A DNA stretch of 45,722 nt from a virus: the IMG/VR virus record IMGVR_UViG_3300045988_128735; one strand, written 5' to 3'. Below the pieces are notes generated by a model that worked only from the letters and a program-made list of their open reading frames with translations, made no database searches and was not told where the DNA came from. Positions 3,274-23,212 of this stretch are shown here, piece after piece. Position 1 is the stretch's first letter; each line of letters begins with the position of its first letter. A program made the translations under genes and the position numbers.

Positions 3274-6200
3274 TTTCTTTTTCTGCTAACATTAGACTTC
3301 ATTTTGTCAACAAGTCGCTCAGCCTCTATTGTGCCGTGTTTGCCGGTCGCGTATGTTTCGGCCACGATAGGCGCAGCAAAACGACGATCGAGAGAGTTAA
3401 GCGAGCGTACCACGCGAGAGAGTACAGCTGTAAGGGCTGCATCAGTTGTTGGTTGTTGCACTTGACTATGCTGTACAAACGAGCCATGGGCACTGGACGT
3501 AGCGCCACCGAAATGACGCTGCTGTGGGATGACTGCAGCGATGTCGTCTGGAGATAGACGCGAAACGCTGCCAGAGCGCTGTGCCTCGTCGATGAGGTTA
3601 AGAACTGGGAGCACGTTAGGGTTGCCAGTAGCAAAGCGATTAGCAACAAACTCGTTGGAATGTACTATGCCTTGTGGTTTGTCCCATGGACCGTTCGGAG
3701 TGAAGCCGCCGACATCAAAACTGCCTACTGCAGCTTTGGCCATTTCAAAAGCCGCCTTGACAAGCGCTGTCTCTATCGCTGCTTTAGCGAGACCCGCAGG
3801 TCCGAGTGTACCCACATTTCTTGCTATGGATGCAGCTCGCGCTGTAATAACGACATTCTCAAGAGCATCTATCATAAGAGACAGCATGCCACGGAGGAAG
3901 TCTTTGAAATCGGCCTTCTCGCCCTGAAGAATCTTGCCAAGCTCTTCGCCAAGCTTCTGACCTGCAGAAACAATAACACTACACACGATATCGTTATACT
4001 TCTGCGCAAGCTCCTGCTTCTGCTTGAGCGCATCTTTGGTCTGTTCGATGTCGGCATCGTCAATTTGCTGCTGTATGGCCAGGCGTTGCTCACCGGTAAG
4101 CGCTGTGTCCTCAAGGAGTTTTTGCAAATACCCCTTCCAAGCCTCACTTCGCTCTGCTTGACTTTGCTCTTCGATATTGCCAGACTTGATATTAGCCTTA
4201 CGTTGCCACTCCATCAGTGTCTCAAATGTAGTCTTAGCGTCACTGATATAGCGGTCAGCAGATTCTTTATTGGCCTTATCAGTGTCTGTCGTATACCGTT
4301 CATTGAGTCTTTTTAAATCAGCCTGATATTGCTCCTCGCTGATGAGTTTCTTGTCATGAAGATTATTGAGAAGAGCGAGATCATGGTCATACTTCTGCTT
4401 GATGTTGTCAAGCTCATGAGCGAGCTGATCAGCTTCTGTGTCGCCGAACGACTGCTCAATCTCGCGAAGCTGGTCGTAAAGCTTAACCTTATAGTCAAGA
4501 ATCTTCTTTTCTATCTCGGCACGCTTCTTCGGCTCAAGTCCAGCAACCTCAAGTTTTTTGTTAAGCTCTTCGATTTCAAGGTCTTCAACCTTACGGTTAT
4601 AGTCTTCTTGTGTGGCAATAGAGCCATCGAGGTAAGTTTGTTTTGCCTGTGTGCGCTTGGTCTCATAGTCTGCAGTGATGGAGTCGAGTTCTTTCTGAAC
4701 GAGCTTTTGGCGTTCGACTTCAGGGTCAGACTTGGTGCTTTCGTGTGATGAAGAGTTGGTCTCACTATCCCCACCTGAGCCTGATTGAGTAGTGGATGTA
4801 CTGTTGGAATTGGAGTTAGCGGCATCTTTTTCGAGGTCGGAGCCGTAGACCTCGGTTATACCATTGCGCTCGGCGTAGAGTTTGCGAAGCTTTTCGTTAG
4901 AGTTGCTGACAGCCCGCTCCTCACTTAAAGTAGAAGTTGCGATACCGATACCAGCTTGCCAGGTGGTAGGCATATAGACAGCACTGTTGTTGGCCTTACG
5001 GCTGCGGTCTTGGGCCTTTTTAAGATCTTCGGTCGCTTTTCTGAGATTAACACGCTCCTTTGCAATCTCACTACCGATGCGCTTCAGCTCATCTTTGGCG
5101 CCTTCTAACTCATACTTACGCTGAAGCGACTGTAGATAACCATCGAGAGCCTTCTTGCTCGCCTTATATTTGCCGGTCGTGGTATCAAGTTGCGCATTGT
5201 AGTTGGGAATAATCTGATTGAGTTTGTTGACTGCCTTGCGTCTCTCATCCATGGAAAGTGTCTCGTCTTTGGCAGCATCAATGAGAGTGCGTATGTGCGT
5301 CTCTTCTTCAGCAGATTTGGCTGCAGCTTCCTTTTTTATATCATTGATTTTGTTTTGCGCTATCGCTGCATCATCAAGCTTCTGACGATATAGAACCAAT
5401 GCAGTGGTAACAGCTGTAATTACGGCGAGGAACGCACCGAGCGGATTGGCACCAATGACAATGTTGAGCATTTTTTGCAAGGCGACAGTCTTTGACATAG
5501 CACCATTGAGAACAGCATGACGAAGCATAATTGTCATAAGCCATTTGTCTTGAATAGCATGCCAAATCACGAGCATTTTTTCAGTAGCTACAGCACGTTT
5601 ATTCCACAAAACAGACAATTTAACGCCTGCTACGTAAGCGGCAACTGTAGCAGTAAGCGTAATGAGTGCCCTACGATGGGATATGACAAAATTAGTGATA
5701 GCACTTAGACTCTTAACTGCCAGTGAGCCCGTGCTAATACCCTGCTTAACAAGAGGCAGCAACTTCTCGCCAAGTTCAATAGACAAATCAAGGAACTGCT
5801 TTTTTGCCTTGTCAATGCCAGCCTGTACTGTGTTATTTTGCACATTAAACTCATCGAGCACACTACTACCTTCATTGTAGGCATTGAATGCAACAGTCTG
5901 TGCTTCTCTTACTTGATCAAGATGTGATGCGACAGACGAGAGAACACCGACAGCGCGTGTGCCCTCAAGTTTCATCTCAGAAAACAAAGGTGCCATCTTG
6001 TCGAAGCCACCAGAGGCTTGCATAGCTGAAAGGAATTTCATAAGAGCCTCGTTAGCATTTGTCTTAAGAAGCGTGGTAAACTCTTTGACATCCTCACCAG
6101 CGAGCGCAGCAAAGCGTGCTGGTTCTTGAAACATCTTGGTTATAAGCTGCGAGAACACGGTAGAAGCCGTAGCCTCCTCTTGCATATTCTGATCGAGCGC

Positions 6201-7570: not shown

Positions 7571-8047
7571 TTAATGCTGTTTTTTGACAATTGTCACGCG
7601 GTCTATTTGTTCGAGCACGTCTTTGGCAGCTCGGTCGCCATAGTATTCGGCGGCGATGTCTGCAAGGCCCTGCATCTGCTGTTCGACGTTCTTGTCGAGC
7701 CAATCTACCGGTCTTCGGCGAATCGGACCAGGAGGAACGTGACGGTTCGGATTGTGCGAACCGCGCACAACTCTGCCATTGAGTCTGATGTAACCGTTAC
7801 CTACGCCATAGGCGACGAATACGCCGTAGCGGACGAACTTGAAGGCTACGGCGTGAGCCAAGCCATCGTCGTGAGCTTTGTTGACAGCAGCCTTCAGACG
7901 GCCTCTTAGGTCGCCACTATAGACCTGAGTCTCGGCTACCAATGTGCCAAGAGAGCGTGAGCGCACGGTGTCAGCCCACGCCTTGACCCGGTCGTTGAAC
8001 TCACCGGCTGACATCTGCTGCGGATCGCTGTTGCCTTGTGCTGCCAT
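7571..8047 (-). CDS. Hypothetical protein (158 aa), possibly a tail-completion or neck-type protein
   Basis: ORF only. It is tightly packed behind the amidase gene (5-nt gap). The functional guess is weak. Confidence 0.4.
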   Translation of the reverse strand: MAAQGNSDPQQMSAGEFNDRVKAWADTVRSRSLGTLVAETQVYSGDLRGRLKAAVNKAHDDGLAHAVAFKFVRYGVFVAYGVGNGYIRLNGRVVRGSHNPNRHVPPGPIRRRPVDWLDKNVEQQMQGLADIAAEYYGDRAAKDVLEQIDRVTIVKKQH

Positions 8048-8052
8048 AAGCC

Positions 8053-8493
8053 CTACAGTTTAGAAATGTCGGCATATTCGGTAGTTGCATCAAACGACGG
8101 GCAAGCTTTAGCCGCGAAGTCACGATGACCACGTATGACAGCATTTGGAAACCGTCTCTTCAGACGCATAAGAAGATTAACGAGTGCGTCACGCTGCTGT
8201 GGTGTTCGCGTGTCTTTAGGATTGCCATCCTTGCCCACGCCACCGACATAGCACACGCCTATGGAGTTTGCATTATGACCTTTGCAGTGAGCGCCCACCT
8301 TATATATTGAGCGACCGGTATGCACGGTACCGTCACGATATATTACGTAGTGATAGCCAATACAGTCAAATCCGCGTTGACGGTGCCAGCTGTCTATTGT
8401 GCTGACCGTATAATTGCGACCCTCGATAGTGGCTGTGCAGTGAATGATGATGAGATTGATTTTGCGCATAACATTATAAATTAGTTCATGCAA
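8053..8493 (-). CDS. N-acetylmuramoyl-L-alanine amidase (amidase_2 / PGRP-type endolysin)
   Basis: Motifs 'IIIHCTAT', 'GYHYVIYRDGTVHTGR', 'GAHCKGHNANSIGVCYVGG' and 'RGHRDF..KACPSFD' are typical of T7-lysozyme-like zinc amidases. Confidence 0.9.
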   Translation of the reverse strand: MHELIYNVMRKINLIIIHCTATIEGRNYTVSTIDSWHRQRGFDCIGYHYVIYRDGTVHTGRSIYKVGAHCKGHNANSIGVCYVGGVGKDGNPKDTRTPQQRDALVNLLMRLKRRFPNAVIRGHRDFAAKACPSFDATTEYADISKL

Positions 8494-8526
8494 ATATACC
8501 CCATAAAGCAGACCTGCAGTCGGACA

Positions 8527-8802
8527 TCAATAAACCAGATAAGGCGAGAAGTCAAACGTCTCTGGATTGTAGTTAATCTCACCGAGATAGCACATGGCTA
8601 TGCGATGACATGTGCGCTTGATATCGTCAAGCGTCGGGCGGTGGAAGTATTCCACGCGGTGGTATTTCACCTCTATTTCGAATGTGTCTTCGATGATGTG
8701 CTCCATCCGGATAAATAACAGCCAGTCCCCGCTTGGAAGTTGCTGTATCGGAACCCACTTCCAGCTCGAGTTCTGGCATGAAGAATTGTTTGTGATTGCC
8801 AT
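8527..8802 (-). CDS. Hypothetical protein (91 aa) overlapping the 3' tail of the RT ORF
   Basis: The composition looks protein-like, whereas the overlapping last ~60 aa of the RT frame are R/P/G-rich and look non-functional. Confidence 0.45.
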   Translation of the reverse strand: MAITNNSSCQNSSWKWVPIQQLPSGDWLLFIRMEHIIEDTFEIEVKYHRVEYFHRPTLDDIKRTCHRIAMCYLGEINYNPETFDFSPYLVY

Positions 8803-10201
8803 TTTTTATTTGCTTTTTAATTTTCTGAATAGGTCTGAATTGCTTTCGTAGCACAATCTTTTTGAAATGCCCCTCGACATAGATGAATTTATACCACCCT
8901 CTATCGAACAACGAAATCAGCTTCTTGCGCTTGTTGTATGTGTTATAATGAATCATCAAGCCGAGATAACTGTTAATAGTGGCCACGAACCTCTCTGCCC
9001 ACTGTTCGCCCTCGCCCGCTTGCAGTTTGCTGTTGTAAAAGTGTATGCGTCGATAAGCAGCACCGAGTGTACGTTTAGAAATGTATATACGGTTAGGCTT
9101 AATCATTGCACCGACATAGAGCACACCATGCTGATAAGGCTGTATGTAAATCTTTTTGGGATGAAGATTGATGTGTAACACATCTTTACAGAATACCTTT
9201 ATTTTAGACACCATAGCACGTGCATGCTCGAACCCCTTGGAGTCAAGAATGACGAAATCGTCCATGAACATCTCAAGCTCTTCAACTTTGAGTTCGTTAA
9301 GAAGATAATCAACAAGCACAGACATGTAGAAATTGGCTGAAAGCTGTGAAGGCAGCTTGCCTATAGCTATACCTATGCGAGGATCATTGCCCATTAACGA
9401 TTTGTCCGGAGGCAAATCGTCCCAAGCAGACCTTGGAGACCTACGAATGAAATGATGTTGCGGAGCGTCATAAATGGTCTTACGAAGCAGATAGAGAAGC
9501 AGGTCTTTGTCCGGTTTATGATAGTCAGCCATGATAAGGTCCTCATACATCCACCATAAAATATCTTTATCAATAGACATAAAGAACCCCTTGATATCAA
9601 GCCGTATAACAATAACATCTTTAGTATACCCCTCGGTAATGCTGTAGATTTTAGAAGCGAGAGACTTCACTGCCGTAAGGCAACCAAAACCCTTACGACA
9701 ATTTTTTGAAACGTTATATTGTCGTTTAAACCTTGCTTCAAGCAATGGATCTATGCGCTCTGCTATCCAGTGATGAACGATACGGTCACGGTATTGGGCG
9801 CCAAAAACCTCACGTTTGACGGGGTAAGGTACAATAAAAACGTCTGAAGGCGACGGCTCATAACTTAATGTTACAGCGTCGCGCCACAGACGGACAATAT
9901 TGTCGGAAGCATCTAAGGAGAATTCGATGCAATCAGCAGATGACCGTTTGTTCTTGTCGCAGGACTCTGCGGCATCGAAAAACGAAGTCGGAGTGTTGTA
10001 GACATAATCTTGATATGCAGCCACCGGGCGGACGAAGCCCGCGTTTGTCTTGTTGTTGTTGTTGCCGTTGCCGTTGTTGAGGTTCACGTTCCAAGCGTTA
10101 CCAGCATCCCACTCACTCGCTGTCGCTACTATGTAATTCTTTTCTCCCTCAAGCGAAGAAGAAGAGAGCGACCCATATAAAGAAAAATATTGCTCACTCA
10201 T
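8627..10201 (-). CDS. DGR reverse transcriptase (the ORF includes the TR at its 5' end)
   Basis: RT motifs are present: 'QYRDRIVHHW', 'RLDIKGFFMSIDKD', the DGR-type 'IGKLPSQLSANFYM' (IGxxxSQ) and 'FMDDFVILD' (YxDD-type catalytic box). It sits immediately downstream of avd and the TR. The functional RT domain seems to end near 8830. Confidence 0.93.
   Translation of the reverse strand: MSEQYFSLYGSLSSSSLEGEKNYIVATASEWDAGNAWNVNLNNGNGNNNNKTNAGFVRPVAAYQDYVYNTPTSFFDAAESCDKNKRSSADCIEFSLDASDNIVRLWRDAVTLSYEPSPSDVFIVPYPVKREVFGAQYRDRIVHHWIAERIDPLLEARFKRQYNVSKNCRKGFGCLTAVKSLASKIYSITEGYTKDVIVIRLDIKGFFMSIDKDILWWMYEDLIMADYHKPDKDLLLYLLRKTIYDAPQHHFIRRSPRSAWDDLPPDKSLMGNDPRIGIAIGKLPSQLSANFYMSVLVDYLLNELKVEELEMFMDDFVILDSKGFEHARAMVSKIKVFCKDVLHINLHPKKIYIQPYQHGVLYVGAMIKPNRIYISKRTLGAAYRRIHFYNSKLQAGEGEQWAERFVATINSYLGLMIHYNTYNKRKKLISLFDRGWYKFIYVEGHFKKIVLRKQFRPIQKIKKQIKNGNHKQFFMPELELEVGSDTATSKRGLAVIYPDGAHHRRHIRNRGEIPPRGILPPPDA
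10013..10115 (-). repeat. DGR template repeat (TR), 103 bp
   Basis: It aligns without gaps to 10846..10948. All 12 mismatches are T in this copy on the plus strand, which is A on the coding strand. It encodes 11 AAC codons ('NAWNVNLNNGNGNNNNKTN'). Confidence 0.95.
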
Positions 10202-10232
10202 AATGCCCTGATGTTGAGAATTATGACTCTGG

Positions 10233-10691
10233 CTACTGTGCAGTCTTCTTCCATGCAGTAGCTTGTCTACCGATACTCTCGGTAAGAACAGCCATCTGCG
10301 CTGCTGTGGAATTGGTTATCTGCTCCAGCTCTTTACATACTCCGATCAGCATCTTGACAGTGCCGAACTCTACGATAAACTCCTCGAGATATTGTCTACG
10401 GCTTGTACGACGATTGCGCCACTCATCAATAAACATACAAGCCAGACGAATCAAGCCATTAGCAGACTTGTTTGTCTCACCGTTGAACTGAGGCAAATAG
10501 TCTGGTGCCGGTATAGCTGTGTTGGCTTTCTGTATAAGCTCAAGACAGCGAAGTGCAGACTCGAAAAGGTGGCTCCCGAGATCATATCTGTATTCTCGGG
10601 AAAACTGCTTGCGAGCGCGGACTATCATCAGCAGCAACTCGTAAGTCTGTTTGTAAATTGGGAGTGTTTGTGCAAGTCGTTGATTAGCCAT
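10233..10691 (-). CDS. avd: Accessory variability determinant (Avd-like four-helix-bundle protein)
   Basis: 152-aa helical protein between the VR gene and the TR/RT, which is the canonical Avd position. The N-terminal pattern 'LPIYKQTYELLLMIVRARKQFSREYRYDLGSHL...LIQKAN' resembles Avd / 23S-IVS-type four-helix proteins. Confidence 0.8.
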   Translation of the reverse strand: MANQRLAQTLPIYKQTYELLLMIVRARKQFSREYRYDLGSHLFESALRCLELIQKANTAIPAPDYLPQFNGETNKSANGLIRLACMFIDEWRNRRTSRRQYLEEFIVEFGTVKMLIGVCKELEQITNSTAAQMAVLTESIGRQATAWKKTAQ

Positions 10692-10713
10692 AACATAATT
10701 AACTAAAAATTAA

Positions 10714-10721
10714 CAAATTTA
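10714..10721 (-). promoter_or_regulatory. Candidate -7 box (TAAATTTG) for the avd-TR-RT transcript
   Basis: Plus-strand 'caaattta', 23 nt upstream of the avd ATG (10691) and just downstream of the terminator of the VR gene. Confidence 0.5.
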
Positions 10722-10757
10722 TTGTACCCCTGTTTATTAATTTTTATTAATAAAAAA

Positions 10758-10772
10758 AGCCGCTTCGCGGCT
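10758..10772 (-). terminator. Hairpin plus T-run downstream of the VR gene
   Basis: The minus strand reads 'AGCCGC GAA GCGGCT' followed by TTTTTTT (plus-strand A-run at 10752-10758). It lies about 74 nt beyond the end of the VR. Confidence 0.75.
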
Positions 10773-10842
10773 GATTAGACATGCAGCCACAAAGCAGATT
10801 GATATAACTATCTGACAGTTAAAGAGTTAAAGGGTTAAAGAG

Positions 10843-11640
10843 CTAATATGCAGCCACCGGGCGGACGAAGCCCGCGCCTGTCTTGCCGTTGGTGCCGCCG
10901 TGGCCGTTGTAGAGGTTCACGCCCCAAGCGGTACCAGCATCCCACTCAGTACTACTCCAATACCAATCAAGTGTTAAAGAATATGAAGAACCGAGATTAT
11001 TTGTTAAAAACTTTCTTATCTCTTCACGGTATTTATATAGCAAGCGCAACTGGCCGTAGGCTGGAAGCGACCATTTGGTCGGGTCGTCGATAGCCGTGCT
11101 GTCAGCAGCCTTAGTGAAAGCCTTATAAGACCGCGCAACGGTAGCGGCAGGAAAGCTGGCCCCTTGCTCCTTGGCACATGCAAGAATAAGGTCGGTATTA
11201 GCCTCGCCGTCAACATCTTCGAACACCCCCTCGTTTTTGTTACTAAAATCTTTAAGACCGGGCACATTGATGTTCGTAGGACCCCACACAAAACGAATGG
11301 TAGAGTCTGATGTGGCGTTTTGAAGCGATAACACGAAAGCCATGCGCTCAGCACGTATGGCCACGCCGAACGGAACAAACTTTGACCTCTCGTTCACGGT
11401 CATCGTCTGCCATTGGTTTTCAGAGAAATAAGACCTTTGCGGCGACGGGTCTCTGAGCGAGGTCTTGAGATATGTAGCCACTTGCAGGTCGCGCAGACCA
11501 CCGGCCCACCTCATATGATTAACGATGTCAGACCACGTAGCATTGTCAGCGATGTCTGTAAAGCCGACATCGCGTAGAGCTTTAATCTGGTCTTGTTTGT
11601 TAAGACCGAGAATAATCGAACTGTTATTTGCATTATCCAT
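10843..11640 (-). CDS. DGR target protein (265 aa), C-type-lectin-like / DUF1566-like C-terminus; probable receptor-binding tail protein
   Basis: It carries the VR at its C-terminus. The 'W..S.EWDAG.AW.V......G......GFVRPV' ending is typical of DGR-diversified CLec / DUF1566-like folds. It lies two genes downstream of the giant fibre gene. Confidence 0.9.
   Translation of the reverse strand: MDNANNSSIILGLNKQDQIKALRDVGFTDIADNATWSDIVNHMRWAGGLRDLQVATYLKTSLRDPSPQRSYFSENQWQTMTVNERSKFVPFGVAIRAERMAFVLSLQNATSDSTIRFVWGPTNINVPGLKDFSNKNEGVFEDVDGEANTDLILACAKEQGASFPAATVARSYKAFTKAADSTAIDDPTKWSLPAYGQLRLLYKYREEIRKFLTNNLGSSYSLTLDWYWSSTEWDAGTAWGVNLYNGHGGTNGKTGAGFVRPVAAY
10846..10948 (-). repeat. DGR variable repeat (VR), 103 bp, at the 3' end of the target gene
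   Basis: The cognate of the TR. It ends at the last sense codon before the TAG stop (10843-10845). The encoded segment 'EWDAGTAWGVNLYNGHGGTNGKTGAGFVRPVAAY' differs from the TR-encoded 'EWDAGNAWNVNLNNGNGNNNNKTNAGFVRPVAAY' only at Asn positions. Confidence 0.95.
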
Positions 11641-11642
11641 AA

Positions 11643-12437
11643 TTACTCTTCAGAAATAGGTATCACCATATACTTGTCTGTCTTGTTTGTACCGTAGACA
11701 TTACCGCTAAGCACCGATACACGGTAAGCCACACTGCCGTTGGTTTGCACGCAGGTCCATATTGTGCCACCTGTCTTGTCAAGCGTAAAAGCCTGACCCC
11801 AAACCTGAGCAATGACCGTGTCAATAGCCTTGCGGTTGTGATAGATGACAAACGCCTGCGCAACGTCAGGCAGCATCCATGATGTCTGGTCATCTATAGC
11901 GACACCATTCACCATGACCCCGTCATCTTCGAGATACGCATGATAGTCATTTGCAGCTTCAGCTGCAGGGGCGCCGATGACGCCATCGGCGTTCTTGTCG
12001 GCATAATAGTCAAGTATAGCTCGGTTGAATCGAGCAACATCCTGATGCGACCAGGCACCGGCACGACCGTCAAAAGACGCAAGGTCACTGACAGTAGTCC
12101 GTGACCCCCATGTCTTATCTGCGTAATACTGCAGAGACATGACGAACGAAAGTCCGTCTGCCCTGATGCGAACGCCACGCCGTGCGAACTCCTCAGACCG
12201 CCCGGCATTGTCAATGGTCTGCCACTCCTCGACAGTGAAGTAGAATTTCTTGCCGTCACGTTTGCGGTCAGCAGCCACACGAATGTCGAGCAGCCCTGCA
12301 GCCCAACGAATGCGCTCTGCAAAGAGCGAGGCGCGTGAAGACTCGGTAATATCGGCAAAACCCAAGTCTTGAAGAGCCTTAACCTGCTCGCGTTTAGCGA
12401 GCAGGAGGCCAGTAATGTTTTGTTGATTGCTTGCCAT
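11643..12437 (-). CDS. Non-diversified paralog of the DGR target (264 aa)
   Basis: Shared blocks with 10843..11640: 'KALxDxGFxDI', 'RWAxGL', 'EWQT', 'FVxSLQ' and 'AIDDxTxWxLP', plus a similar C-terminal 'GxNKT...xVxPx'. I chose the ATG at 12437 (MASNQQ...); the ORF-track start at 12515 would overlap the fibre gene. Confidence 0.8.
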   Translation of the reverse strand: MASNQQNITGLLLAKREQVKALQDLGFADITESSRASLFAERIRWAAGLLDIRVAADRKRDGKKFYFTVEEWQTIDNAGRSEEFARRGVRIRADGLSFVMSLQYYADKTWGSRTTVSDLASFDGRAGAWSHQDVARFNRAILDYYADKNADGVIGAPAAEAANDYHAYLEDDGVMVNGVAIDDQTSWMLPDVAQAFVIYHNRKAIDTVIAQVWGQAFTLDKTGGTIWTCVQTNGSVAYRVSVLSGNVYGTNKTDKYMVIPISEE

Positions 12438-12441
12438 TTTG

Positions 12442-15400
12442 TTATTTGTCAATAATTTTAAGAATATCATCATCGGCTTCAGCCAGACGGTTGTAGTAGT
12501 CATCATAAGTCTCACCGTTGTACTGCTTCAGGTAGTCGTTGATATTGTCAAGACTGACATCTTCAACTTCTGCCTCGCCGGAGTATTGTTCGCCGAGGAA
12601 ATCAATAACAGCATTAATATAAGCCATGATAGACATAACTATCGTAAGACCCTCGATGTGCTGAGTGAGGTCGTCTATGTACGACTGCTCTCGCACACGA
12701 GTAAGCTGATAGTCACTCTCGACAACCGGTTTGTCTTGCAACTTGCCGTCTTCGGTAATGCCGCGCACGCCAAGAGTCAGTAACAAGGCAAGCAGCGAAC
12801 CGTCACCAGAAAGCGTCTGAATCACTCGGATGGCAGTAAGCTGACGGTTGCCCGTCTGAGCGTCAACAACACGCTGTAGCATTGTCAACGGCTCTATCTC
12901 ATTGCAGTGCTCGATGCGCAGTGTCTGCACATTGGCGAGAGACGCAATCTGAAGGTTGCCGCCCGTCAGCGTGTAGCTTAGGTTCGGCAAGTTGATAAAC
13001 TTGACAGTCTTGAGCGTCGCCGGAAGCGTAAGCTCAGTGATTGGCGACGTCTCTGCAACCTCGACACTCTGCACACGACTGCCGTCAGCCTTGATGCTCG
13101 TAAGGCGAGGACACATGCTCGCGTCAACGGATGCGACGAGCGTGTTGCGCACGTCAAGCGACTGAAGGAAAGGCATGTTGCCGAGGTTGAGCGTGTCGAG
13201 AGTGCCATCGACAGTGTATGGGACGTAGTCAGCACCGCCGACAACAAGATGCTGCAGCAATTTACAGTACTGTATATCCCAGCCCTGCGACTTCGGCGTA
13301 GCAGCACTGATGTCGAGTGATGCGAGCGAAGCAGCACCGAAGACGTATAACATGGTGCCCGACTCGGAATAACTGCGCGGACTGTCATTGAAGAACGTAT
13401 AGCTCTTGCCCCTCTTGAGATAAGTAGAGTCTGCGGCGGTATCTGCGCGATCCTCGCCGATGCCGAAGAAACCGTCTTTAGCCGCCGTGATGCTCACAGT
13501 GATAGCTTTGCCCGACGCACGCATCTTCATCGGCTTGGTGTACAGGTCGCCCACCTGGTAGTAACCGTCGCGATAGGCGAAGCGAGTCTTGATATATTCT
13601 GGCATATCGTCGAGACGTAAGCCATGCAAGGCGAAGAAGTAGTTGGCGCTCGCCTTTGAGTGTTGAATATACTTGCGCTCGCCGTCAAACGACGAAATCA
13701 CCTTAGCCCACTTCAGGATGCGTTTTGTCATCCATATCTGATAAAGACCGTCATAAGAGAATACCTTCAGTCCCTGCTTGTCCACAGCCTTACGCATCTC
13801 ATCAGCCACATCATGCAGCGTCACGAAACGCGATTTGTCGGTGTAGCCACTCTTTTCGTCGCCCTCCTTGTAGTCGTCAAGCCAAATAACGGGGTTCTCA
13901 TTGAGACGTTGGAAGAACACGCTGTCCCAGCCCTGGTACAGTCTGCCCTCTTCACCCTCGCCGACAAGCAGCGGGTTGAGCAATGCCGAGATGGTCAGAC
14001 CGCAATCGTTGTCGGCACCCATTGTACAGTCACCGTCATACCAGTTGTTGAAGTCAGAACGTATCACGCCATCCTCACATAGCATGAAGGTCTGCATCAT
14101 GTTCTTCGAGCGCTGGTCTACAGCAGCAACATAATCTGTAAGTATATAATAGTAGAGAGCAGCCTTGACACGCCAGTACCGGTGCATCTCATGGGCAAAC
14201 TTCTTGGCGCGGTTAGCACGTGTGCCTGGCACCGTCTTGCCGTCAAGCGTTATGTTGCCGTCAGCCTCAGTAAGGTGCGGGTTGCACTGCTGCATCCACA
14301 TCAAATTCTCATAGAAGTAGTACGGCACCTTCTTGCCACTCTCGTACAAAGCGTTCAGATCGTCATCGTCAGGATAGCGACTTTCGAAATGCGACAGCCA
14401 AATCGGCTTGCCCGTAGCAGGGTCAAGACGCAGCATGTCGTCAACCGAGTTCACGCCCTGATACCAGTTAAGACCGTTGTACTTAAGATGCTCATAGCAC
14501 TGCGTCGGATTGAGCACCCTGCCCGTAACCTGCCAACGCTTTGTCGTCTTGTCGTAGGTCATAGAGCCGGTAGTCTCTCGCCACTTGCCACCCTCATATT
14601 TGGCATACTTGCCGTCAGCCGTCTTATACACCTCGCTCCAGTCATAGTCTGCCACGTCAGCCGATAGCAGCTCGGCAAGTGTCTGCTCGAGCACCAAAGC
14701 GTCAGCCACCTCGCTTGTCTCGACAAAGTGGCCGGTACCGTCGTTCTCAATGAAGGCAGTCTTCGGACCGCAGAACTCCGACAGCATGTATATCTCGCCC
14801 GCCTGCAGCTTAGACGTGTCGGCAAGCGTCTGCGCCTTAAACTCGCCGAAGTCCTGTCCGCGAGCAGCAACAAGTTCAGTAAAGTCACCATAATTCATGC
14901 AGCTCTTGTTGTAGCCGTCTACGCCCTCGAAGCCGAACACCTTGGCGTCGCCCTTGTCCTCGTTCAGGTTGGCCTTGACATGGAAGTAGGCGTAAGCCGG
15001 ATTGGTAGCGTCTGGCGAATACTTGTCGGTGCGGAAGAAGGCACACGGCACACTCGCTATCGACGGATTAATCTCAGCCTTGCCAGTGTAGGCATTCTGT
15101 GACGGCTGCATATACTCGGCACCGAGAGCACGGATCAGTCGGTTGTTCAGTTCGCATGACGCGCCATTGTTCGCGCCGGTGCAATCGGAATAATCAACCT
15201 TCACGGTGAGGATGTCTGTAGCGACACCATTCTCAACCACTTTGATTTTGCCCTTCTTGGCATTGGCAAGAGCCTCGTCGTACTTGGCGAGGTCAGCGCC
15301 GCTAAACTCCTCACGGCTGTGTAGCAGAGTGATTTTAGCAGTCTTCGTCTTACCCTTCTTGTTCTTGTCAGGGCGTAACGATGACGTCGTGCCCTGATTG

Positions 15401-18400
15401 GTAAAGACCATGCCCTCGATGAAGCAGTCCTGCCAAGGACGGTCAGGGAAGTAGAGATAGACGTCAAAGATGCGCTTTGTCTTCTTGTCGCCGTCGAGCG
15501 TGTCCAGATAACCAGGATATTGGTCTTCGGTGTCAGCCGTGTTCTTGTTCTTCACCATCACCATCACACAGAGACCAGCCTTCTTGCAAGCCTCTATGGT
15601 AGGACGGTCTTTGGTGGTGTTCTCGGCTGTCTGGCTCGCCATCACGTCGTTCGCCTCGTACTCCTTGACCATAGCGTCGGTATCCGGCATTGCAGCAAGG
15701 TAGTTGTTGAAGGCTTGGCGGAACTGATAGTAAGTGCGCCACGCCGTCAGCTGATATAGGTAGAGATCGGCCAGCGTGCCGTCGAAGCGTATGATATTGT
15801 CATTCATCGGCAGCGCGTTCTTGGAATAGGCGCAAGCAGCCCGCTCCTCGCCATCACCGAAAATCTTGACCACACCGATGCCTTGATACGGTGCGACCGC
15901 TGAAGGTTCTATGACGATATCCACACGTGTCACCTTCTCCGCTTTAAGCGGCATGGTGGCCGTATACATCGTAGATTGCTCGCCGTCGCACGTGAACACG
16001 ACCTTGTCGCCTGTAACGTAGAAACCAATCTGCCCGTCGCCAAGTGCGTCGATAAGTCGAGCCGTGGAGTCGGCGACATTGGCCGGTTTGATGGTAAACG
16101 AGAGAGCCATGCCGGTCGTTTCGGTCGAGGCGTTGCTCCACGGCTTGAAATCGCACTTTGCCGTAACATTCTCGGCTATACGCAGAGCCATGCGACCGAG
16201 CGGATTGCCGTTAGCGTCAGTCTGCCCGTAATCGTCAGAACCATAGTTGTCACGCACGAAACCGTTAGTGGTGTAGTTGGCGCCACTAACCTCAATGTTC
16301 ACCCCATTGTCAGAGATGGTCTTGTCAGAGTCGCTGTTAGAGCGCGATGACATATCAAGGTCAAAGATGGCACCTGCAGTAGTCTCGATAGGTATAATAG
16401 ACCCCGCAACTGTAATATCGTATGCCGCTGAGCGCACATCGCCCGACATAGCGTAGAACTTGAGCTGGCTACCGACAGACATACCAGACAGACGCTTGGT
16501 CACGGTATAAGTACGATCGCGAGACATCTGCTGCTGAGCTATAACGGTAGCAGCGTTTTCGCCCACCTGCATCATGACATCAACAGCCGTCTTGGTCTTA
16601 CCGGAAGTGTATGCAGCCACATCCACAGACACGGTCTGAAACAATTTTCTCGTCTGTGTGCCGTCATCAGACCAACGCATGACGACGAGAGGCGTGTCAT
16701 CAGCCTCGTTAACGACCATGATGCCGGAGTACAGCCAGTTGCCAGATACGCCCGAAGCCACGTCAACACCATGCAGACGCAACGGGTACGAGCCATGTGT
16801 CAGGCCAAGAGCTTTAGGGTCGAAGTTGACAGCATGAGTAAAAACGTCAGTAACCACAGTCTCGTCGATGGTGTGCCAAGCACCACTATAGTACATCTCA
16901 ACAGTTGCCTTAATACCCTTAGATGACGCATTGTTGGGGAATGAATAAAGAGGTACAGACACAGCAGCACCATTCACCTTCAGCACCGTCGACGAAGTAT
17001 AGTTGAGCGTCTGTTGCGACACAACAGTAGCATCAACACCCACAGCCGACACGTTCTTGTTGCCTGAGTGGTCGCCGTCATCGTAAGCCACGATACGGAA
17101 CGAGCGCGAGCCTGCAGTAGTTGCAAAATACTCGGATATATCAATTTTGAATTTGAAATCGTCAGTAAGATTAGCCGATGACTCAGTGTTGACATTAAGC
17201 GTCTGCAGAACAGCATTAGTTGAGCGGTCAACGAGGTCTACACGTGTTATGGAGTTGAGCGAGTCACCTGAAGGAGTAGAAGTCACCGACATAATAGCAG
17301 CTTCAATCGTCATCGTCGAACCTACAGCGCCATAGACCGTCGACTTCTTCAGCGCAATGCTGACGGTCGTAGCCTGGACCGCGCCGCCACCGCCCTTGAT
17401 GACAATCTGGCGCTGTTCGCCGATCTGGTCGCCGTCAGCATTGGTGAGCGCAAACTTGTAGACGCCACCATCCTCCTCGACAATATCGATGTCAGTCGGT
17501 GTGTTGGTGTATGCTCCCCCCGTGCTGTAAGGGTCTTTGCCGTCTTTGGCTGGAGCGTCAGACACGTTGATGTCCTCGCTTTTGCCGAACTCACGCCACA
17601 AAGTCGCACCCGTATCAGTCTTGGATGCATCAGCGACGTTATCGCCATGGAACTGGAACGACCTCGTCTTGTTAGCCTCGGAAAGAAAAGAGATAATAAG
17701 ACCACGCTTGATATAGTTGACAGACGTGCTCTGCTGATAACTGATGAGAGCTGCCACCGCACTGCTGAGCGTATAATAAACCACTTTGCCATTGCCATCG
17801 ATGAGATTGTTGATATTGATGTAGGTCTCAGAACCGGCAGCGAGAGAGCCGAAGTCTTGCCAGTTCACCGGGTCCTGCCAAGCACTGATGGTAAGCGAAG
17901 TGCCTATGTACTGATAGGTCTTCCAAATCTTCTTGGAAACCTGAATAGTGAGCAGCAAACCAAACGACACCTTGCCCGCACCCCACGCCACATCAACGGC
18001 AGACGCCTTTGCATTGTCGGGATCGTAGAGGGCATAAAAGCCGCTGATGGGGTAAGAGACGGTTGGGTTAAACACAGATGACGACGTACCGCCACCGCCC
18101 ACATCCTGCCATTTCTCAGTATCACGGAAGTCCGCCTCAGACGTAGAGTCGGAAGTATACTGCTTGATCTCCCAATGTGTAGAGTCTTTTCGATAGGTTA
18201 TCATCAGACCAGGAACAACAAGGTCTCGAATAGACGTTGTACTGTAAATGCGGTCAATGGCTGTTTCGAGCGTGTAGTTGCCGCCGACCAGTCTGCTAAC
18301 ATTGACGAAAGGAACCAGCCCGAGACGAGTCTGAACAGCATCTATGGGAGTACGCATGTCAGGCAGATAATCCTCAGGAACCATGCCGTTAATGTCAAGC

Positions 18401-19266
18401 GGAGCGATACCGCCCTCAACACCCTTGCTATCAATGAAAGCTTTAAGATTCACTTCGGCAGTGCTCAGACGCTTCTTCATGTCTGCGCCCTCATTGCCCG
18501 GAAACGCAGTGTCTTGTTCATGCCCAAGCTCCAAGTCGGTACCGACAAGAATAAGTTCATCGTCACACCAGACGTAAGAACGCTGTTCGCTCACGTCCAC
18601 ATACATCTTGCCGCTGCGAGGCACACGCCCGGCCTCTGTCGCTTTGCCGAAAGCATCACCGTCACGCCAGTTGTTATAGTAAGAAGTCGTACCTTTATCA
18701 ACCTCAAGAACAAAAACATTCTCGTTAAGGTTGTATACGACCCTACAGTTCTCGTCTGTAGAATAATATATAGAGGACATCTTGAGCGCAGTCACCATGA
18801 CAGTGCCGTAAAACGTCACAGCAGAATTCTTGAGAATCTCTATCTCGTCAGTTAACGTATGTATGCTGTCCTGCAACCCGTCAACGGTCTTCTTCTGAGC
18901 GTTATAGTTATTAGAAATCTCAAGAATAGACTGCGACATTGTATTGAGCGAGCTCGTTATTGAGGACATCTGCGCAGGAGTGATGACACCAGCAGCAGAA
19001 GCGCTGACAACCGGCAAGTTCACATATTGCAGACTCACCTTCTCACCCGCCCGGACGGAAAGCGTCAGTCTGACGCTATTGGCGTCAGCTGTAGGGCTGA
19101 CGTTGATGGCAGTGACCGCCCCCGACGACGAGGTGTTCACCTCACTCACCTTTTCAATAATGTCTTTGAGCATCTGGCCGACAAGCCCTGCCGTGTTGGA
19201 GTCCGGTAGCGTATTGGTGCGGATGGTTTCAGCTTGCGATGTAAGTATGTCGTATGTTTTAGCCAT
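12442..19266 (-). CDS. Giant tail fibre / host-recognition protein (2274 aa)
   Basis: A single uninterrupted ORF. It has beta-rich Ig-like repeats and a LamG/ConA-like stretch ('...MALRIAENVTAKCDF...ALSFTIKPANV...DLYLYQLTAWRTY'). A possible CotH-like stretch ('VDQRSKNMMQTF...NNWYDGDCTMGADND') is also present. The C-terminus carries leucine-rich repeats ('LDTLNLGNMPFLQSLDVRNT...LTSIKADGSRVQSVEV...LKTVKFINLPNLSYTL'). Confidence 0.8.
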   Translation of the reverse strand: MAKTYDILTSQAETIRTNTLPDSNTAGLVGQMLKDIIEKVSEVNTSSSGAVTAINVSPTADANSVRLTLSVRAGEKVSLQYVNLPVVSASAAGVITPAQMSSITSSLNTMSQSILEISNNYNAQKKTVDGLQDSIHTLTDEIEILKNSAVTFYGTVMVTALKMSSIYYSTDENCRVVYNLNENVFVLEVDKGTTSYYNNWRDGDAFGKATEAGRVPRSGKMYVDVSEQRSYVWCDDELILVGTDLELGHEQDTAFPGNEGADMKKRLSTAEVNLKAFIDSKGVEGGIAPLDINGMVPEDYLPDMRTPIDAVQTRLGLVPFVNVSRLVGGNYTLETAIDRIYSTTSIRDLVVPGLMITYRKDSTHWEIKQYTSDSTSEADFRDTEKWQDVGGGGTSSSVFNPTVSYPISGFYALYDPDNAKASAVDVAWGAGKVSFGLLLTIQVSKKIWKTYQYIGTSLTISAWQDPVNWQDFGSLAAGSETYININNLIDGNGKVVYYTLSSAVAALISYQQSTSVNYIKRGLIISFLSEANKTRSFQFHGDNVADASKTDTGATLWREFGKSEDINVSDAPAKDGKDPYSTGGAYTNTPTDIDIVEEDGGVYKFALTNADGDQIGEQRQIVIKGGGGAVQATTVSIALKKSTVYGAVGSTMTIEAAIMSVTSTPSGDSLNSITRVDLVDRSTNAVLQTLNVNTESSANLTDDFKFKIDISEYFATTAGSRSFRIVAYDDGDHSGNKNVSAVGVDATVVSQQTLNYTSSTVLKVNGAAVSVPLYSFPNNASSKGIKATVEMYYSGAWHTIDETVVTDVFTHAVNFDPKALGLTHGSYPLRLHGVDVASGVSGNWLYSGIMVVNEADDTPLVVMRWSDDGTQTRKLFQTVSVDVAAYTSGKTKTAVDVMMQVGENAATVIAQQQMSRDRTYTVTKRLSGMSVGSQLKFYAMSGDVRSAAYDITVAGSIIPIETTAGAIFDLDMSSRSNSDSDKTISDNGVNIEVSGANYTTNGFVRDNYGSDDYGQTDANGNPLGRMALRIAENVTAKCDFKPWSNASTETTGMALSFTIKPANVADSTARLIDALGDGQIGFYVTGDKVVFTCDGEQSTMYTATMPLKAEKVTRVDIVIEPSAVAPYQGIGVVKIFGDGEERAACAYSKNALPMNDNIIRFDGTLADLYLYQLTAWRTYYQFRQAFNNYLAAMPDTDAMVKEYEANDVMASQTAENTTKDRPTIEACKKAGLCVMVMVKNKNTADTEDQYPGYLDTLDGDKKTKRIFDVYLYFPDRPWQDCFIEGMVFTNQGTTSSLRPDKNKKGKTKTAKITLLHSREEFSGADLAKYDEALANAKKGKIKVVENGVATDILTVKVDYSDCTGANNGASCELNNRLIRALGAEYMQPSQNAYTGKAEINPSIASVPCAFFRTDKYSPDATNPAYAYFHVKANLNEDKGDAKVFGFEGVDGYNKSCMNYGDFTELVAARGQDFGEFKAQTLADTSKLQAGEIYMLSEFCGPKTAFIENDGTGHFVETSEVADALVLEQTLAELLSADVADYDWSEVYKTADGKYAKYEGGKWRETTGSMTYDKTTKRWQVTGRVLNPTQCYEHLKYNGLNWYQGVNSVDDMLRLDPATGKPIWLSHFESRYPDDDDLNALYESGKKVPYYFYENLMWMQQCNPHLTEADGNITLDGKTVPGTRANRAKKFAHEMHRYWRVKAALYYYILTDYVAAVDQRSKNMMQTFMLCEDGVIRSDFNNWYDGDCTMGADNDCGLTISALLNPLLVGEGEEGRLYQGWDSVFFQRLNENPVIWLDDYKEGDEKSGYTDKSRFVTLHDVADEMRKAVDKQGLKVFSYDGLYQIWMTKRILKWAKVISSFDGERKYIQHSKASANYFFALHGLRLDDMPEYIKTRFAYRDGYYQVGDLYTKPMKMRASGKAITVSITAAKDGFFGIGEDRADTAADSTYLKRGKSYTFFNDSPRSYSESGTMLYVFGAASLASLDISAATPKSQGWDIQYCKLLQHLVVGGADYVPYTVDGTLDTLNLGNMPFLQSLDVRNTLVASVDASMCPRLTSIKADGSRVQSVEVAETSPITELTLPATLKTVKFINLPNLSYTLTGGNLQIASLANVQTLRIEHCNEIEPLTMLQRVVDAQTGNRQLTAIRVIQTLSGDGSLLALLLTLGVRGITEDGKLQDKPVVESDYQLTRVREQSYIDDLTQHIEGLTIVMSIMAYINAVIDFLGEQYSGEAEVEDVSLDNINDYLKQYNGETYDDYYNRLAEADDDILKIIDK

Positions 19267-19777
19267 TATTAATTGATTTGAAATTGTTTAAACTATCGTT
19301 GATGCAGCCAGACAAAGGCACAGAGAACTCAGCCAGACAGCCGTACAGTGCGTTCTCAGCGTTCTGTATAGGCAGAACCTTAATCGGCGATGAAGGAATG
19401 AGCGAGAGCAGCCACTTGTGCTCAGGCTTACGTCCCACACGGTCATGCATCATACGTACAAAGATATCAGTAATAATCTGTGAAGAATCGGACAATGCCC
19501 GCTCCACCTCAGCATAATCGCCTGTATCGGTGACGTGGACAAGCACCTCGATATGGCACGTATAGTTGCGCGACACAGATGTTGACGATGCCTCAATCTG
19601 GAAGTCAGTCGACTCGAAGTACACAGCCGGGTAGCGAAGCTCTTGTGCCAGCGACGTGTTGCGCTTGTCATCGTTGAGATTGACAAAGTGAGGACTCTCG
19701 TCAGTATGTCGTACCATCATGTGCTCACGTGCAAGCTGTTCGATGTAGTCTATAACGGTTTGTATTGTCATAAGCAT
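19259..19777 (-). CDS. Hypothetical structural protein (172 aa)
   Basis: ORF whose stop overlaps the fibre start by 8 nt. Part of the late-operon packing. Confidence 0.5.
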   Translation of the reverse strand: MLMTIQTVIDYIEQLAREHMMVRHTDESPHFVNLNDDKRNTSLAQELRYPAVYFESTDFQIEASSTSVSRNYTCHIEVLVHVTDTGDYAEVERALSDSSQIITDIFVRMMHDRVGRKPEHKWLLSLIPSSPIKVLPIQNAENALYGCLAEFSVPLSGCINDSLNNFKSINNG

Positions 19778-19783
19778 TTGATG

Positions 19784-21555: not shown

Positions 21556-21558
21556 GAT

Positions 21559-22917: not shown

Positions 22918-23209
22918 TGCTCCAGTCTATGATATGAGAGTTGTATTCGATGATATTGGTAATCTTCACCGGAATGACGTGCAGTTCGGGATTGCCCTTG
23001 CAGTCGCACGGCTGAATGCCTCGAAAGCGCAGTCGCTTCATGTCCATGCCCTTGCATCCGGTAACGTATGCCGTAGGTATGAAGTGCAGCCGTCCGTCTT
23101 TGGTGGTGAATTTAATTGAAAAGATGCGCCTCTTGCCGAAGCGGTCGGTGCGTATGTCGAGATCTGCGAGCATAGTGCTCGCGTACATAGTTTTTTTAGT
23201 GTCTTCCAT
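22901..23209 (-). CDS. Hypothetical protein (102 aa)
   Basis: ORF overlapping the start of the next gene by 17 nt. Confidence 0.45.
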   Translation of the reverse strand: MEDTKKTMYASTMLADLDIRTDRFGKRRIFSIKFTTKDGRLHFIPTAYVTGCKGMDMKRLRFRGIQPCDCKGNPELHVIPVKITNIIEYNSHIIDWSNGYSI

Positions 23210-23212
23210 ATA

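Follow-up and report, generated by a model that had tools for sequence, protein, structure and literature searches.

Organization of the locus

The window, by which we mean the whole stretch of DNA analyzed here, is a 45,722-nt virus sequence (IMG/VR record IMGVR_UViG_3300045988_128735) deposited as a Caudoviricetes metagenome-assembled genome (MAG) without annotation of a diversity-generating retroelement (DGR). Its gene set includes an integrase, a tape measure, a protease, an amidase and a primase, and the region of interest comprises the following genes and repeats.

8627–10201, minus strand: reverse transcriptase (RT) ORF of 524 aa, with an RT-homologous core at approximately 8768–10012 and a weak Pfam RVT_1 match
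10013–10115, minus strand: template repeat (TR), with 30 adenines and 11 AAC codons, in frame within the RT ORF
10233–10691, minus strand: avd, encoding a four-helix-bundle protein of 152 aa (Pfam bAvd PF22296 at 41.1 bits, cut-off 40)
10843–11640, minus strand: DGR target gene (265 aa), with a C-terminal DUF1566/Lcl_C C-type-lectin-like domain that ends in the VR
10846–10948, minus strand: variable repeat (VR), the final 34 codons of the target, with naturally varying positions at 10875–10940
11643–12437, minus strand: non-diversified paralogue of the target (264 aa, ATG as in related loci; 31% identity, E 4e-28)
12442–19266, minus strand: 2274-aa protein, putatively involved in tail or host recognition (PHROG 14959), directly upstream of the paralogue

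A repeat search of the window identified TR and VR as an ungapped direct repeat of 103 nt with 88% identity. Base-by-base comparison bears out the earlier note on this DNA, which had claimed a gapless alignment with 12 mismatches: in every case the TR has an adenine on the coding (minus) strand (8 A to G, 3 A to C, and 1 A to T), and none falls on a non-adenine TR position. Given 30 A per 103 nt of TR, the chance of finding 12 of 12 mismatches on A is 5.7e-8 (hypergeometric). The mismatches occupy codon position 1 or 2 of AAC (Asn) codons; the TR, which lies in frame at residues 29–63 of the RT ORF, translates as EWDAGNAWNVNLNNGNGNNNNKTNAGFVRPVAAY, and 8 of its 11 AAC codons are altered in the VR, as was also claimed. 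The theoretical repertoire of about 15^11 that had been calculated from these codons is too low, because the adenines of the AAG, ACA, and GAT codons likewise vary among relatives, and our own arithmetic gives approximately 1.8e15 protein variants. The last 31 nt of the two repeats are GC-rich and identical, and the TR/VR homology stops 5 nt past an invariant G at position 10018. A search of the window with the A positions treated as wild cards found no additional TR-like copy.

The target protein and its neighbors

The C-type-lectin/DUF1566-like C-terminus ascribed to the target is supported weakly by HMM and also by the predicted fold. The Pfam Lcl_C match (E 2.5e-7, 31.4 bits) lies below the cut-off of 34.9, and PF07603 is recorded for homologues of the target. 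Foldseek comparison of the AF2 model (pLDDT 83) retrieves the C-terminal domain of Lcl (8q4e) and a fimbrial protein of B. ovatus (4eps), and predicted-structure relatives include phage DUF1566 proteins and the C-termini of proteins named tail fibre. The solved Lcl C-terminal domain has been described as C-type-lectin-like (PMC11162425). The helical/beta N-terminal region of the target is common to the target and the upstream paralogue, which is found at the same position in relatives and in which our search of the window found no VR. Homologues of the 2274-aa protein occur in Bacteroidota phages only, and none of the annotation sources checked gives it a function, so that the tail fibre beside which the earlier note placed the target is a putative one. 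In Hankyphage the homologue is encoded after a “minor tail protein”, and the VR of that phage lies at the homologue's C-terminus.

From this context we infer that the target may be a virion-associated receptor-binding protein acting together with its paralogue and the 2274-aa neighbor, in which case diversification would alter host or ligand specificity; the “programmable receptor tropism” proposed earlier is likewise a reading from gene context. It is possible, though rather unlikely, that the DGR is real and its target binds some other ligand (mucosal or dietary glycans, or other cells) or acts in the lysogen, for instance in functions related to the surface or to superinfection. Structural-protein annotation is absent for the target, the paralogue and the 2274-aa neighbor, the target's best matches among solved structures are adhesin domains of bacteria (B. 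ovatus 4eps and Legionella Lcl, the latter binding host glycosaminoglycans; PMC11162425), and there is precedent for phage DGR targets outside structural modules (PMC8008677). On the other hand, the target belongs to a same-strand run with a very large protein, an endolysin and a tape measure, like mtd in BPP-1, its predicted-structure relatives include the C-termini of phage proteins named tail fibre, the Hankyphage homologue of the large neighbor adjoins a minor tail protein and bears a VR, and no signal peptide or lipobox was noticed by eye in the target sequence.

Natural variation and activity

Natural variation was assessed in a population set of 11 loci, consisting of the window and 10 near-identical loci from other metagenomes. 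These 10 loci retain the TR, and each has a different VR. Substitutions across the 11 loci number 115 at TR adenines vs. 3 at non-A positions, in addition to one 6-nt deletion. Pairwise diversity is 0.152 in the VR and 0.244 in its core, compared with 0.016 for the target gene outside the VR, 0.0145 in the TR, and 0.002 in avd; the TR adenines themselves are invariant. Protein variants from one 90% cluster (n = 11) differ almost only at positions that are Asn in the TR. Among IMG/VR relatives (RT identity 34–98%), a repeat pair is present in 70 of 80, with the adenines in the RT-proximal copy in nearly every case. Since the VR is about ten times as diverse as its flanks, the element is apparently active in nature, diversifying the VR in the TR-to-VR direction.

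In each of the 11 loci the TR and its VR have identical 31-nt 3′ ends, and non-A polymorphisms of the TR at 10028, 10027, 10025, and 10019 appear as the same base in each cognate VR. Because these lineage-specific changes are mirrored in the VR, the segment is transferred and does not form the boundary of transfer; TR-to-VR transfer of non-adenine markers reaches position 10019. The T at 10019 is specific to the window and present in both its TR and its VR, and therefore transfer postdates that mutation.

It is improbable that the cassette in this genome is a recently inactivated fossil whose VR diversity stems from past activity or from sister lineages only. The evidence of activity is admittedly between-sample variation, and the last ~45 codons of the RT ORF have no counterpart in relatives, including one of 45% identity, and overlap a 91-aa ORF at 8527–8802. 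However, the cassette has an intact RT, Avd and TR, near-identical to their counterparts in ten loci whose VRs all differ, all 12 TR/VR differences still lie strictly at A with zero accumulated non-A drift, and the shared T at 10019 implies transfer after mutation. Judged from the between-sample variation, this particular genome copy is itself probably active.

Reverse transcriptase and Avd

The RT contains the motifs IAIGKLPSQ (IGxxxSQ) and FMDD (YxDD-type), as had been noted. In a PDB search at E ≤ 10 its sole relative is 8ub7_A (328 aa, E 6e-16 to 9e-16), the same length as the BPP-1 brt product, and no group II or retron RT structure of the PDB reaches E 10. Compared directly, BPP-1 bRT and the window RT share 23% identity (E 6e-20) over the whole RT domain, covering the same residues as 8ub7_A. 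Related RTs are found in 53 phage records, among which are Bordetella and Bacteroides DGR phages. The Pfam RVT_1 match is below its gathering score. Taken together, the motifs, the homology to bRT and the relatives with A-biased TR/VR pairs point to an RT of the DGR clade. GenBank names some related phage RTs “retron-type” or “group II intron”; these are automatic labels placed on RTs with TR/VR pairs.

An ordinary duplication or a paralogous segment beside an unrelated RT (retron, group II intron or defence), with an adenine bias due to chance, is scarcely credible as an explanation of the repeat: a weak NCBIfam match to group II intron RTs (39 bits, cut-off 300) and the GenBank names speak in its favor, but the names are automatic, an Avd is present, and the adenine bias (p 5.7e-8 in the window, repeated in ~80 independent loci) together with the PDB search that returned bRT-length 8ub7_A alone rules it out.

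The earlier recognition of an Avd-like helical protein agrees with the PF22296 score, which exceeds the gathering score, and the protein also has a partial match to NCBIfam DivGenRetAVD (NF033474). The first 63 codons of the RT ORF correspond to a structured leader and the TR. An ATG upstream of the TR is present in 53 of 70 relatives, so that the overlap of TR and RT ORF is conserved.

RNA structure around the template repeat

Folding of the RNA with RNAalifold and analysis of covariation gave a structure of 26 pairs, composed of the following elements.

10198–10226, minus strand: RNA hairpin H1, beginning 7 nt past the avd stop, whose 3′ arm holds the RT start codon (10201–10199)
10174–10190, minus strand: 5′ strand of the long-range interrupted helix H2–H4, with its partner at 10002–10017
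10122–10172, minus strand: RNA hairpin H5, with a 6-bp stem (10167–10172 / 10122–10127) and a purine-rich loop
10002–10017, minus strand: 3′ strand of the long-range helix, made of the last 5 nt of the TR and the next 11 nt

In the alignment 94.4% of cells are paired vs. 37–47% with the partner slid, and compensatory cells number 107 vs. 15–22; on 17 sequences outside the prediction set, 93.8% are paired vs. 34–49%. The long-range helix has 11 pairs with compensatory changes in 10 of them, and the invariant G 10018 abuts its 3′ strand. H5, which ends 6 nt upstream of the TR, shows compensatory changes in 6 of 6 pairs, is 99% paired, and is borne out on the 17 further sequences. H1 is found in independent sequences and also in the single-sequence fold, which recovers no other element and does not outperform shuffles (z -0.54). 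Structured RNA is located upstream of the TR; downstream of the TR, RNAalifold gives just a weak 4-bp hairpin at 9921–9934. This comparative evidence shows the TR as a predicted loop, closed by a helix of upstream sequence with the TR 3′ end, and ties the overlap of TR and RT ORF to a conserved predicted RNA structure.

DNA signals near the VR and avd

Three further features, one adjoining the VR and two between it and avd, were found at the DNA level.

10817–10846, minus strand: 8-nt tandem array CTCTTTAAC CCTTTAAC TCTTTAAC (TRF period 8, 3.8 copies)
10758–10772, minus strand: GC-rich hairpin with a T-run, intrinsic-terminator-like (6 bp, GAA loop), 73 nt after the VR
10714–10721, minus strand: candidate promoter TAAATTTG, 22 nt upstream of the avd start

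The octamer array, directly 3′ of the VR and overlapping the target stop codon, is unique in the window; among 69 relatives, 45 carry it next to the VR, and in 846 kb of those loci it is absent elsewhere. It is a candidate VR-specific cis element. The hairpin is 100% conserved in close relatives. Among relatives, conservation extends neither to the sequence of its loop nor to its orientation. The promoter-like sequence fits TAnnTTTG, the consensus of the Bacteroidota -7 promoter, and is partly conserved in relatives.

In BPP-1, the IMH at the VR 3′ end differs from the TR IMH*, and (GC)14 with a 21-bp element forms the transfer boundary (Guo et al., 2011). The 31-nt 3′ segment was earlier called IMH-like, which holds as far as it is GC-rich and identical; it is not an IMH/IMH* pair, because no TR/VR asymmetry exists inside the repeat across the 11 loci and its non-A changes are mirrored in the VR. 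BPP-1-type hairpins or cruciforms are GC-rich with a 7–10 bp stem and a 4-nt GRNA loop, 4–34 bp downstream of the VR (PMC3240598). No such hairpin was found here, where the sole hairpin is that with the 6-bp stem and GAA loop 73 nt from the VR.

Identity, host, and proposed mechanism

The earlier claim of a complete DGR stands, as the adenine bias, Avd, RT, and target were all found. The refuting tests that the note had attached to this claim also speak for it, and the population data point to continuing diversification. We consider it highly probable (about 0.9) that the region is a complete DGR of the common avd-TR-RT architecture, working by the mechanism outlined below, in a temperate gut phage or prophage (Caudoviricetes) of Prevotella. 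The window Avd is identical to WP_293521224.1 of Prevotella sp. (“four helix bundle protein [Prevotella sp.]”), an identical Avd is also encoded on contigs of up to 296 kb, and relatives are present in MAGs of Prevotella and Bacteroidaceae.

By homology with Bordetella phage BPP-1, the biochemical steps would be as follows. The avd-TR-RT transcript would begin downstream of the target-gene terminator, and RT and Avd would reverse-transcribe the TR, misincorporating opposite its adenines, with cDNA synthesis probably starting at the invariant G 10018. The cDNA would then replace the VR at the end of the 265-aa target (34 codons), leaving the TR unchanged, and up to ~14 codons, mostly AAC (Asn), could be randomized on the DUF1566/C-type-lectin-like domain.

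Comparison with known DGRs

DGRs are a well-known kind of system and are common in gut phages; some of the RNA and DNA signals around the repeats are unusual here. Architecture B accounts for 68% of curated DGRs and the DUF1566 target category for 14% (PMC5758913).

The window resembles the prototype BPP-1 (mtd-avd-TR-brt) in gene order, strand, and place between tail genes and endolysin, as well as in its homologous RT, its Avd-family protein, a VR at the target C-terminus and adenine-specific differences. The BPP-1 order had been proposed earlier and is upheld for the genes, with an endolysin next in line as in BPP-1; the TR, however, is not a separate element between avd and RT but lies inside the RT ORF. 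According to Handa et al., BPP-1 DGR RNA has a duplex of sequences upstream and downstream of the TR (avd:Sp, “cPRT Stop”; bioRxiv 10.1101/2023.10.23.563531), and the template here is similarly bracketed by predicted upstream-downstream pairing, in the form of the 11-bp interrupted helix 10174–10190 / 10002–10017. In contrast to BPP-1, the target is DUF1566/Lcl_C-type, and no sequence similarity to Mtd was found; the TR is 103 nt vs. 134 nt; IMH/IMH* asymmetry is lacking, the hairpin is distant and without a GRNA loop, and an octamer array stands 3′ of the VR. The RT is ~130–190 aa longer than bRT, depending on its true start and end, the extra residues lying at both termini and internally. 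In BPP-1 the TR is separated from brt by a non-coding spacer of 144 nt, which in the BPP-1-type RNA contains the primer strand and an Avd-binding stem-loop (bioRxiv 10.1101/2023.10.23.563531), whereas no non-coding spacer exists downstream of the window TR, because RT coding directly follows it.

The DGR of Legionella pneumophila and category “d” of Wu et al. (2018) (DUF1566, CLec2 VR class; B1) share the avd-TR-RT core with the target upstream, and a VR overlapping a DUF1566-type C-terminal domain. Legionella LdtA is a bacterial surface lipoprotein encoded on an integrative conjugative element, whereas the window target is a small phage protein without a recognized lipoprotein signal, encoded in a phage late-gene block.

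Of the same host phylum are the Bacteroidota gut-phage DGRs, namely Hankyphage (BK010646), the Bacteroides phages Bacuni_F1/F2/F4, and the unannotated faecal phage MT835523, whose RTs have 33–45% identity over 83–95% of the length and in which the DGR is preceded by a homologue of the 2274-aa protein. The C-termini of the targets lack sequence similarity. MT835523 has an identical module of large protein, paralogue, target, avd, TR within the RT ORF, and octamer array. Hankyphage differs in having its VR at the C-terminal end of the large protein itself, with no octamer array behind it. Its record lists no avd and places the TR ahead of a separate RT CDS.

Overlap of the TR with the 5′ end of the RT ORF recalls the “group 3” DGRs of DiGReF (Schillinger et al., 2012; PMC3521204), a class defined from annotation only, by an overlap between the TR and the annotated RT ORF. 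The difference is that the overlap of the window type is shown to be conserved and tied to a conserved predicted RNA structure.

Template and variable repeats

The diversity-generating retroelement (DGR) lies on the minus strand, and the three open reading frames (ORFs) named in the earlier note are all present there. Its parts are as follows.

10843-11640, minus strand: target gene (265 aa)
10846-10948, minus strand: variable repeat (VR)
10817-10846, minus strand: 8-nt tandem array CTCTTTAAC CCTTTAAC TCTTTAAC with CTTTAAC core, 3.8 copies, starting at the target stop codon
10233-10691, minus strand: avd gene (152 aa)
10013-10115, minus strand: template repeat (TR)
8627-10201, minus strand: reverse transcriptase (RT) ORF (524 aa)

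The same note had described an ungapped direct repeat of 103 nt, and a repeat finder recovered it as 10013-10115 against 10846-10948 at 88% identity. Exact comparison bore out the details: every one of the 12 mismatches is an adenine in the TR on the coding strand, 8 of the 11 AAC codons of the template are changed, and TR and VR are identical over the last 31 nt. The adenines of the RT-proximal copy read G (8 cases), C (3) or T (1) in the other copy, always at codon position 1 or 2 of an AAC codon (12/12). With 30 A among the 103 nt of the TR, the probability that 12 random mismatches would all fall on A is 5.7e-8, and a chance repeat was rejected as an explanation. A search of the window in which A was treated as wild revealed no additional TR-like copy or remote VR. 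An exact search of IMG/VR with a 30-mer from the TR 3' end gave no match, because relatives differ at 10019.

Natural diversification and direction of transfer

Eleven members of the target protein cluster, each 265 aa long, differ almost only at TR-templated Asn (plus Lys/Thr) positions. Alignments of ten related loci from other metagenomes, in which Avd is identical and the flanks are near-identical, show a different VR in each locus and an essentially unchanged TR. In the window and these ten loci together, the VR changes comprise 115 at TR adenines versus 3 at other bases, together with one 6-nt deletion, and pairwise diversity reaches 0.152 in the VR (0.244 in its core), as compared with 0.016 for the remainder of the target gene, 0.0145 for the TR and 0.002 for avd. 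Variable columns of the VR correspond to TR adenines between 10107 and 10042, and adenines at the extreme ends are invariant. Judged from this variation between loci, the DGR is naturally active.

At 10028, 10027, 10025 and 10019 the TR has rare polymorphisms at bases other than adenine, and each recurs in the VR of its own locus, as unidirectional copying predicts. Since these markers are mirrored, the GC-rich 3' segment, called IMH-like in the earlier note, is itself transferred and does not mark the boundary. An in-frame deletion of 6 nt within the VR of one of the ten loci (L007, at about 5729-5848) shortens the target to 263 aa, and a G>T change is present there as well; thus the VR changes are not all simple substitutions of A.

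Identity of the RT, Avd and target

The sole relative of the RT ORF among all PDB chains at E<=10 is 8ub7_A (328 aa). The brt product of Bordetella phage BPP-1, the prototype DGR, is likewise 328 aa long and aligns to the RT at 23% identity (E 6e-20) across the whole RT domain, taking in IGxxxSQ and the YxDD-type FMDD. Structures of group II intron and retron RTs stayed below the threshold (E<=10) of the PDB search, and identity with either class was rejected. Avd matches Pfam bAvd above the gathering score and NCBIfam DivGenRetAVD in part; its PDB sequence search gave a chance-level match only.

The target has a weak Lcl_C/DUF1566 match, a Pfam domain that occurs in most of its 83 homologue clusters, and a PDB sequence search with it found nothing. 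An AlphaFold2 model based on 67 homologues (pLDDT 83) matches a Bacteroides ovatus fimbrial protein and the Legionella Lcl C-terminal domain, and weakly the snake-venom and LOX-1 C-type lectins; among phage proteins, it resembles DUF1566 proteins and the C-terminal end of one named tail fibre. According to PMC11162425, the solved Lcl domain is trimeric and C-type-lectin-like, and the predicted structure is in keeping with the C-type lectin fold expected earlier. In the scheme of Wu et al. (2018) the element has architecture B1 and a category 'd' target (DUF1566, CLec2) (PMC5758913).

A template repeat translated within the RT frame

Residues 29-63 of the RT ORF are encoded by the TR, which is read in frame with the RT and in the same frame as the VR. 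Residue 13 of bRT aligns to residue 69 of the ORF. That RT translation starts downstream of the TR, ahead of the RT domain, was considered and rejected: this stretch has no in-frame ATG, and its sole ATG opens another frame that ends after 30 codons. The same arrangement is found in MT835523, a faecal phage with the same DGR module (RT 45% identical), and in Prevotella and Bacteroidaceae MAGs, and the first ATG among 70 IMG/VR relatives lies upstream of the TR in 53, inside it in 6 and shortly after it in 11. Overlap of TR and RT already forms a recognised class, group 3 of DiGReF (PMC3521204), so its kind is known. The leader peptide MSEQY(F/L)SLYGSL and its nucleotides (region 10013-10201) are almost invariant among relatives whose RTs are 73-79% identical, which suggests, from sequence conservation, a constraint at the RNA level.

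RT and target share one 90%-identity protein cluster of 1041 members, presumably as the RT N-terminus encoded by the TR equals the target C-terminus encoded by the VR. This artefact could mislead annotation, and users of such databases should be warned. At the other end of the RT ORF, the last ~45 codons (8627-8768) have no counterpart in the 45%-identical RT. A protein-like ORF of 91 aa in another frame (8527-8802) overlaps this end; gene callers on related loci chose neither it nor any consistent alternative.

A conserved RNA fold around the TR

Eighteen relatives, with RTs 39-98% identical to that of the window, were aligned with MAFFT and folded with RNAalifold, and the following elements were predicted.

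10198-10226, minus strand: hairpin H1, with the RT start codon
10122-10172, minus strand: hairpin H5, 6 bp, ending 6 nt before the TR
10174-10190 with 10002-10017, minus strand: interrupted 11-bp long-range helix

The upstream strand of the long-range helix pairs with the last 5 nt of the TR and the next 11 nt, closing the TR into a loop. In this fold 94.4% of cells are paired, versus 37-47% with the partners slid; compensatory cells number 107 versus 15-22, and 22 of the 26 pairs show double changes. A further 17 sequences, non-identical to the prediction set, gave 93.8% paired versus 34-49%. The window RNA folded alone was no better than shuffles, with H1 alone recovered, and therefore the evidence for the fold is comparative. 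No pairs were predicted for the relatives furthest away (RT about 35%), whose alignment was too divergent. Rfam at E<=1 matched nothing in 8000-12600, including the RNA structure at 10002-10226.

A duplex of upstream and downstream sequences around the TR is seen in the BPP-1 ribonucleoprotein structure and has been predicted for 207 other DGRs (bioRxiv 10.1101/2023.10.23.563531). Unlike the BPP-1 RNA, the 3' strand of the helix starts here at the TR's own end and the downstream spacer is absent. Abutting the helix is G 10018, which is invariant, as is the BPP-1 start site G117 (PMC6182149). Copying includes the marker at 10019, and a C/T mismatch 4 nt further 3' is untransferred, persisting in the MT835523 lineage; the start of copying is therefore bracketed at the helix end. 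We infer that the upstream strand of the helix could prime synthesis.

The VR-adjacent array and models of retrohoming

The 8-nt array 3' of the VR is unique in the window. Of 69 relatives, 45 have an equivalent CTTT-N4 array no more than 90 nt from the VR end, and the 846 kb of these loci contain no other; Hankyphage (BK010646) and the most distant relatives do not have it. The sole hairpin near the VR is intrinsic-terminator-like and differs from the type defined by Guo et al. (PMC3240598). The terminal sequence of TR and VR, GTGGCTGCAT, recurs at 10781-10790, 56 nt downstream of the VR, where pairing with the terminator region can form a longer alternative stem of 12-14 bp. Co-variation of this second copy with the VR end was sought in relatives, and none was seen.

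Canonical mutagenic retrohoming is the account with the best support. RT-Avd would copy the TR RNA, misincorporating opposite adenine, the cDNA would then replace the VR, and the replacement would diversify a surface of the lectin-like domain with which the target may bind its receptor. A more specific joint reading, which we hold tentatively and consider rather more probably wrong than right, is that this clade of Bacteroidota-phage DGRs combines a template RNA permuted with respect to BPP-1 with an array-marked VR. The structured 'spacer' (H1, H5) would lie 5' of the TR within the RT reading frame, and the upstream strand, paired with the TR 3' end, would prime in cis from G 10174 or 10173 onto the invariant template G 10018. 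H5, 6 nt ahead of the TR, would act as the stop, and the conserved array directly 3' of the VR, rather than an IMH/IMH* difference and a GRNA cruciform, would mark the recipient. The covariation, the geometry, the transferred 10019 marker and the untransferred C/T mismatch in the MT835523 lineage are all compatible with it.

Gut phages commonly carry DGRs (PMC8008677, PMC5758913), and the window adds one well-documented, naturally active example to the many. Its architecture is the commonest, its target class is known and its phage genome is already public, and the most worthwhile aspects are the RNA topology specific to the clade and the array next to the VR. An RNA scaffold without downstream spacer, a TR translated with the RT and an array beside the VR make the clade a comparative handle on DGR mechanism; they yield testable predictions on priming, termination and target recognition, and could inform compact DGR engineering.

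Phage, host and neighbouring genes

The RT and target have the same sequences as DAO44760.1 and DAO44776.1, which belong to a third-party-annotated Caudoviricetes MAG and are called 'hypothetical protein' and 'DUF1566' there, respectively. Avd matches Prevotella sp. WP_293521224.1 exactly, and the species-representative genomes with RTs 73-79% identical are Prevotella and Bacteroidaceae MAGs. The gene content of the window includes an integrase, tape measure protein, head protease, amidase and primase. From the integrase, the phage genes and the Prevotella-identical Avd we conclude that this is a temperate Prevotella phage. Few phages of Prevotella have been characterised, and we found no description of this DGR in the literature; megablast of 8400-12600 against GenBank phages gave no match. 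The phage is widespread, as Avd is on hundreds of contigs (333, up to 296 kb), and as a tractable natural system it lends itself to work on receptor or ligand diversification in the gut.

The DGR cassette is flanked by large late genes and the endolysin, as in BPP-1. Directly upstream of the target lies a further relevant feature.

11643-12437: non-diversified paralogue of the target, 31% identical, without a VR

This tandem pair is kept in relatives down to 45% RT identity. The 2274-aa protein before the paralogue (12442-19266) has homologues solely in Bacteroidota phages, and a PDB sequence search with it returned nothing. In Hankyphage, the homologue of this large protein itself bears the VR; homology of the target to the C-terminus of the Hankyphage protein was considered and dismissed, there being no similarity.

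G+C is 50-54% at 12000-24000, which holds the large-protein gene and neighbouring late genes, versus ~45% over the region with the DGR, lysis and tape-measure genes, and this suggests modules of mosaic origin. A tRNA scan of the window found none. Five short tandem-repeat arrays with periods of 7-10, for example CCAACCGA and AACCACAACC, are clustered at 39409-39730, between an ORF end at 39313 and an ORF start at 39917, just ahead of the stop-codon end of the primase gene on the plus strand; they may represent iterons or an origin of replication.
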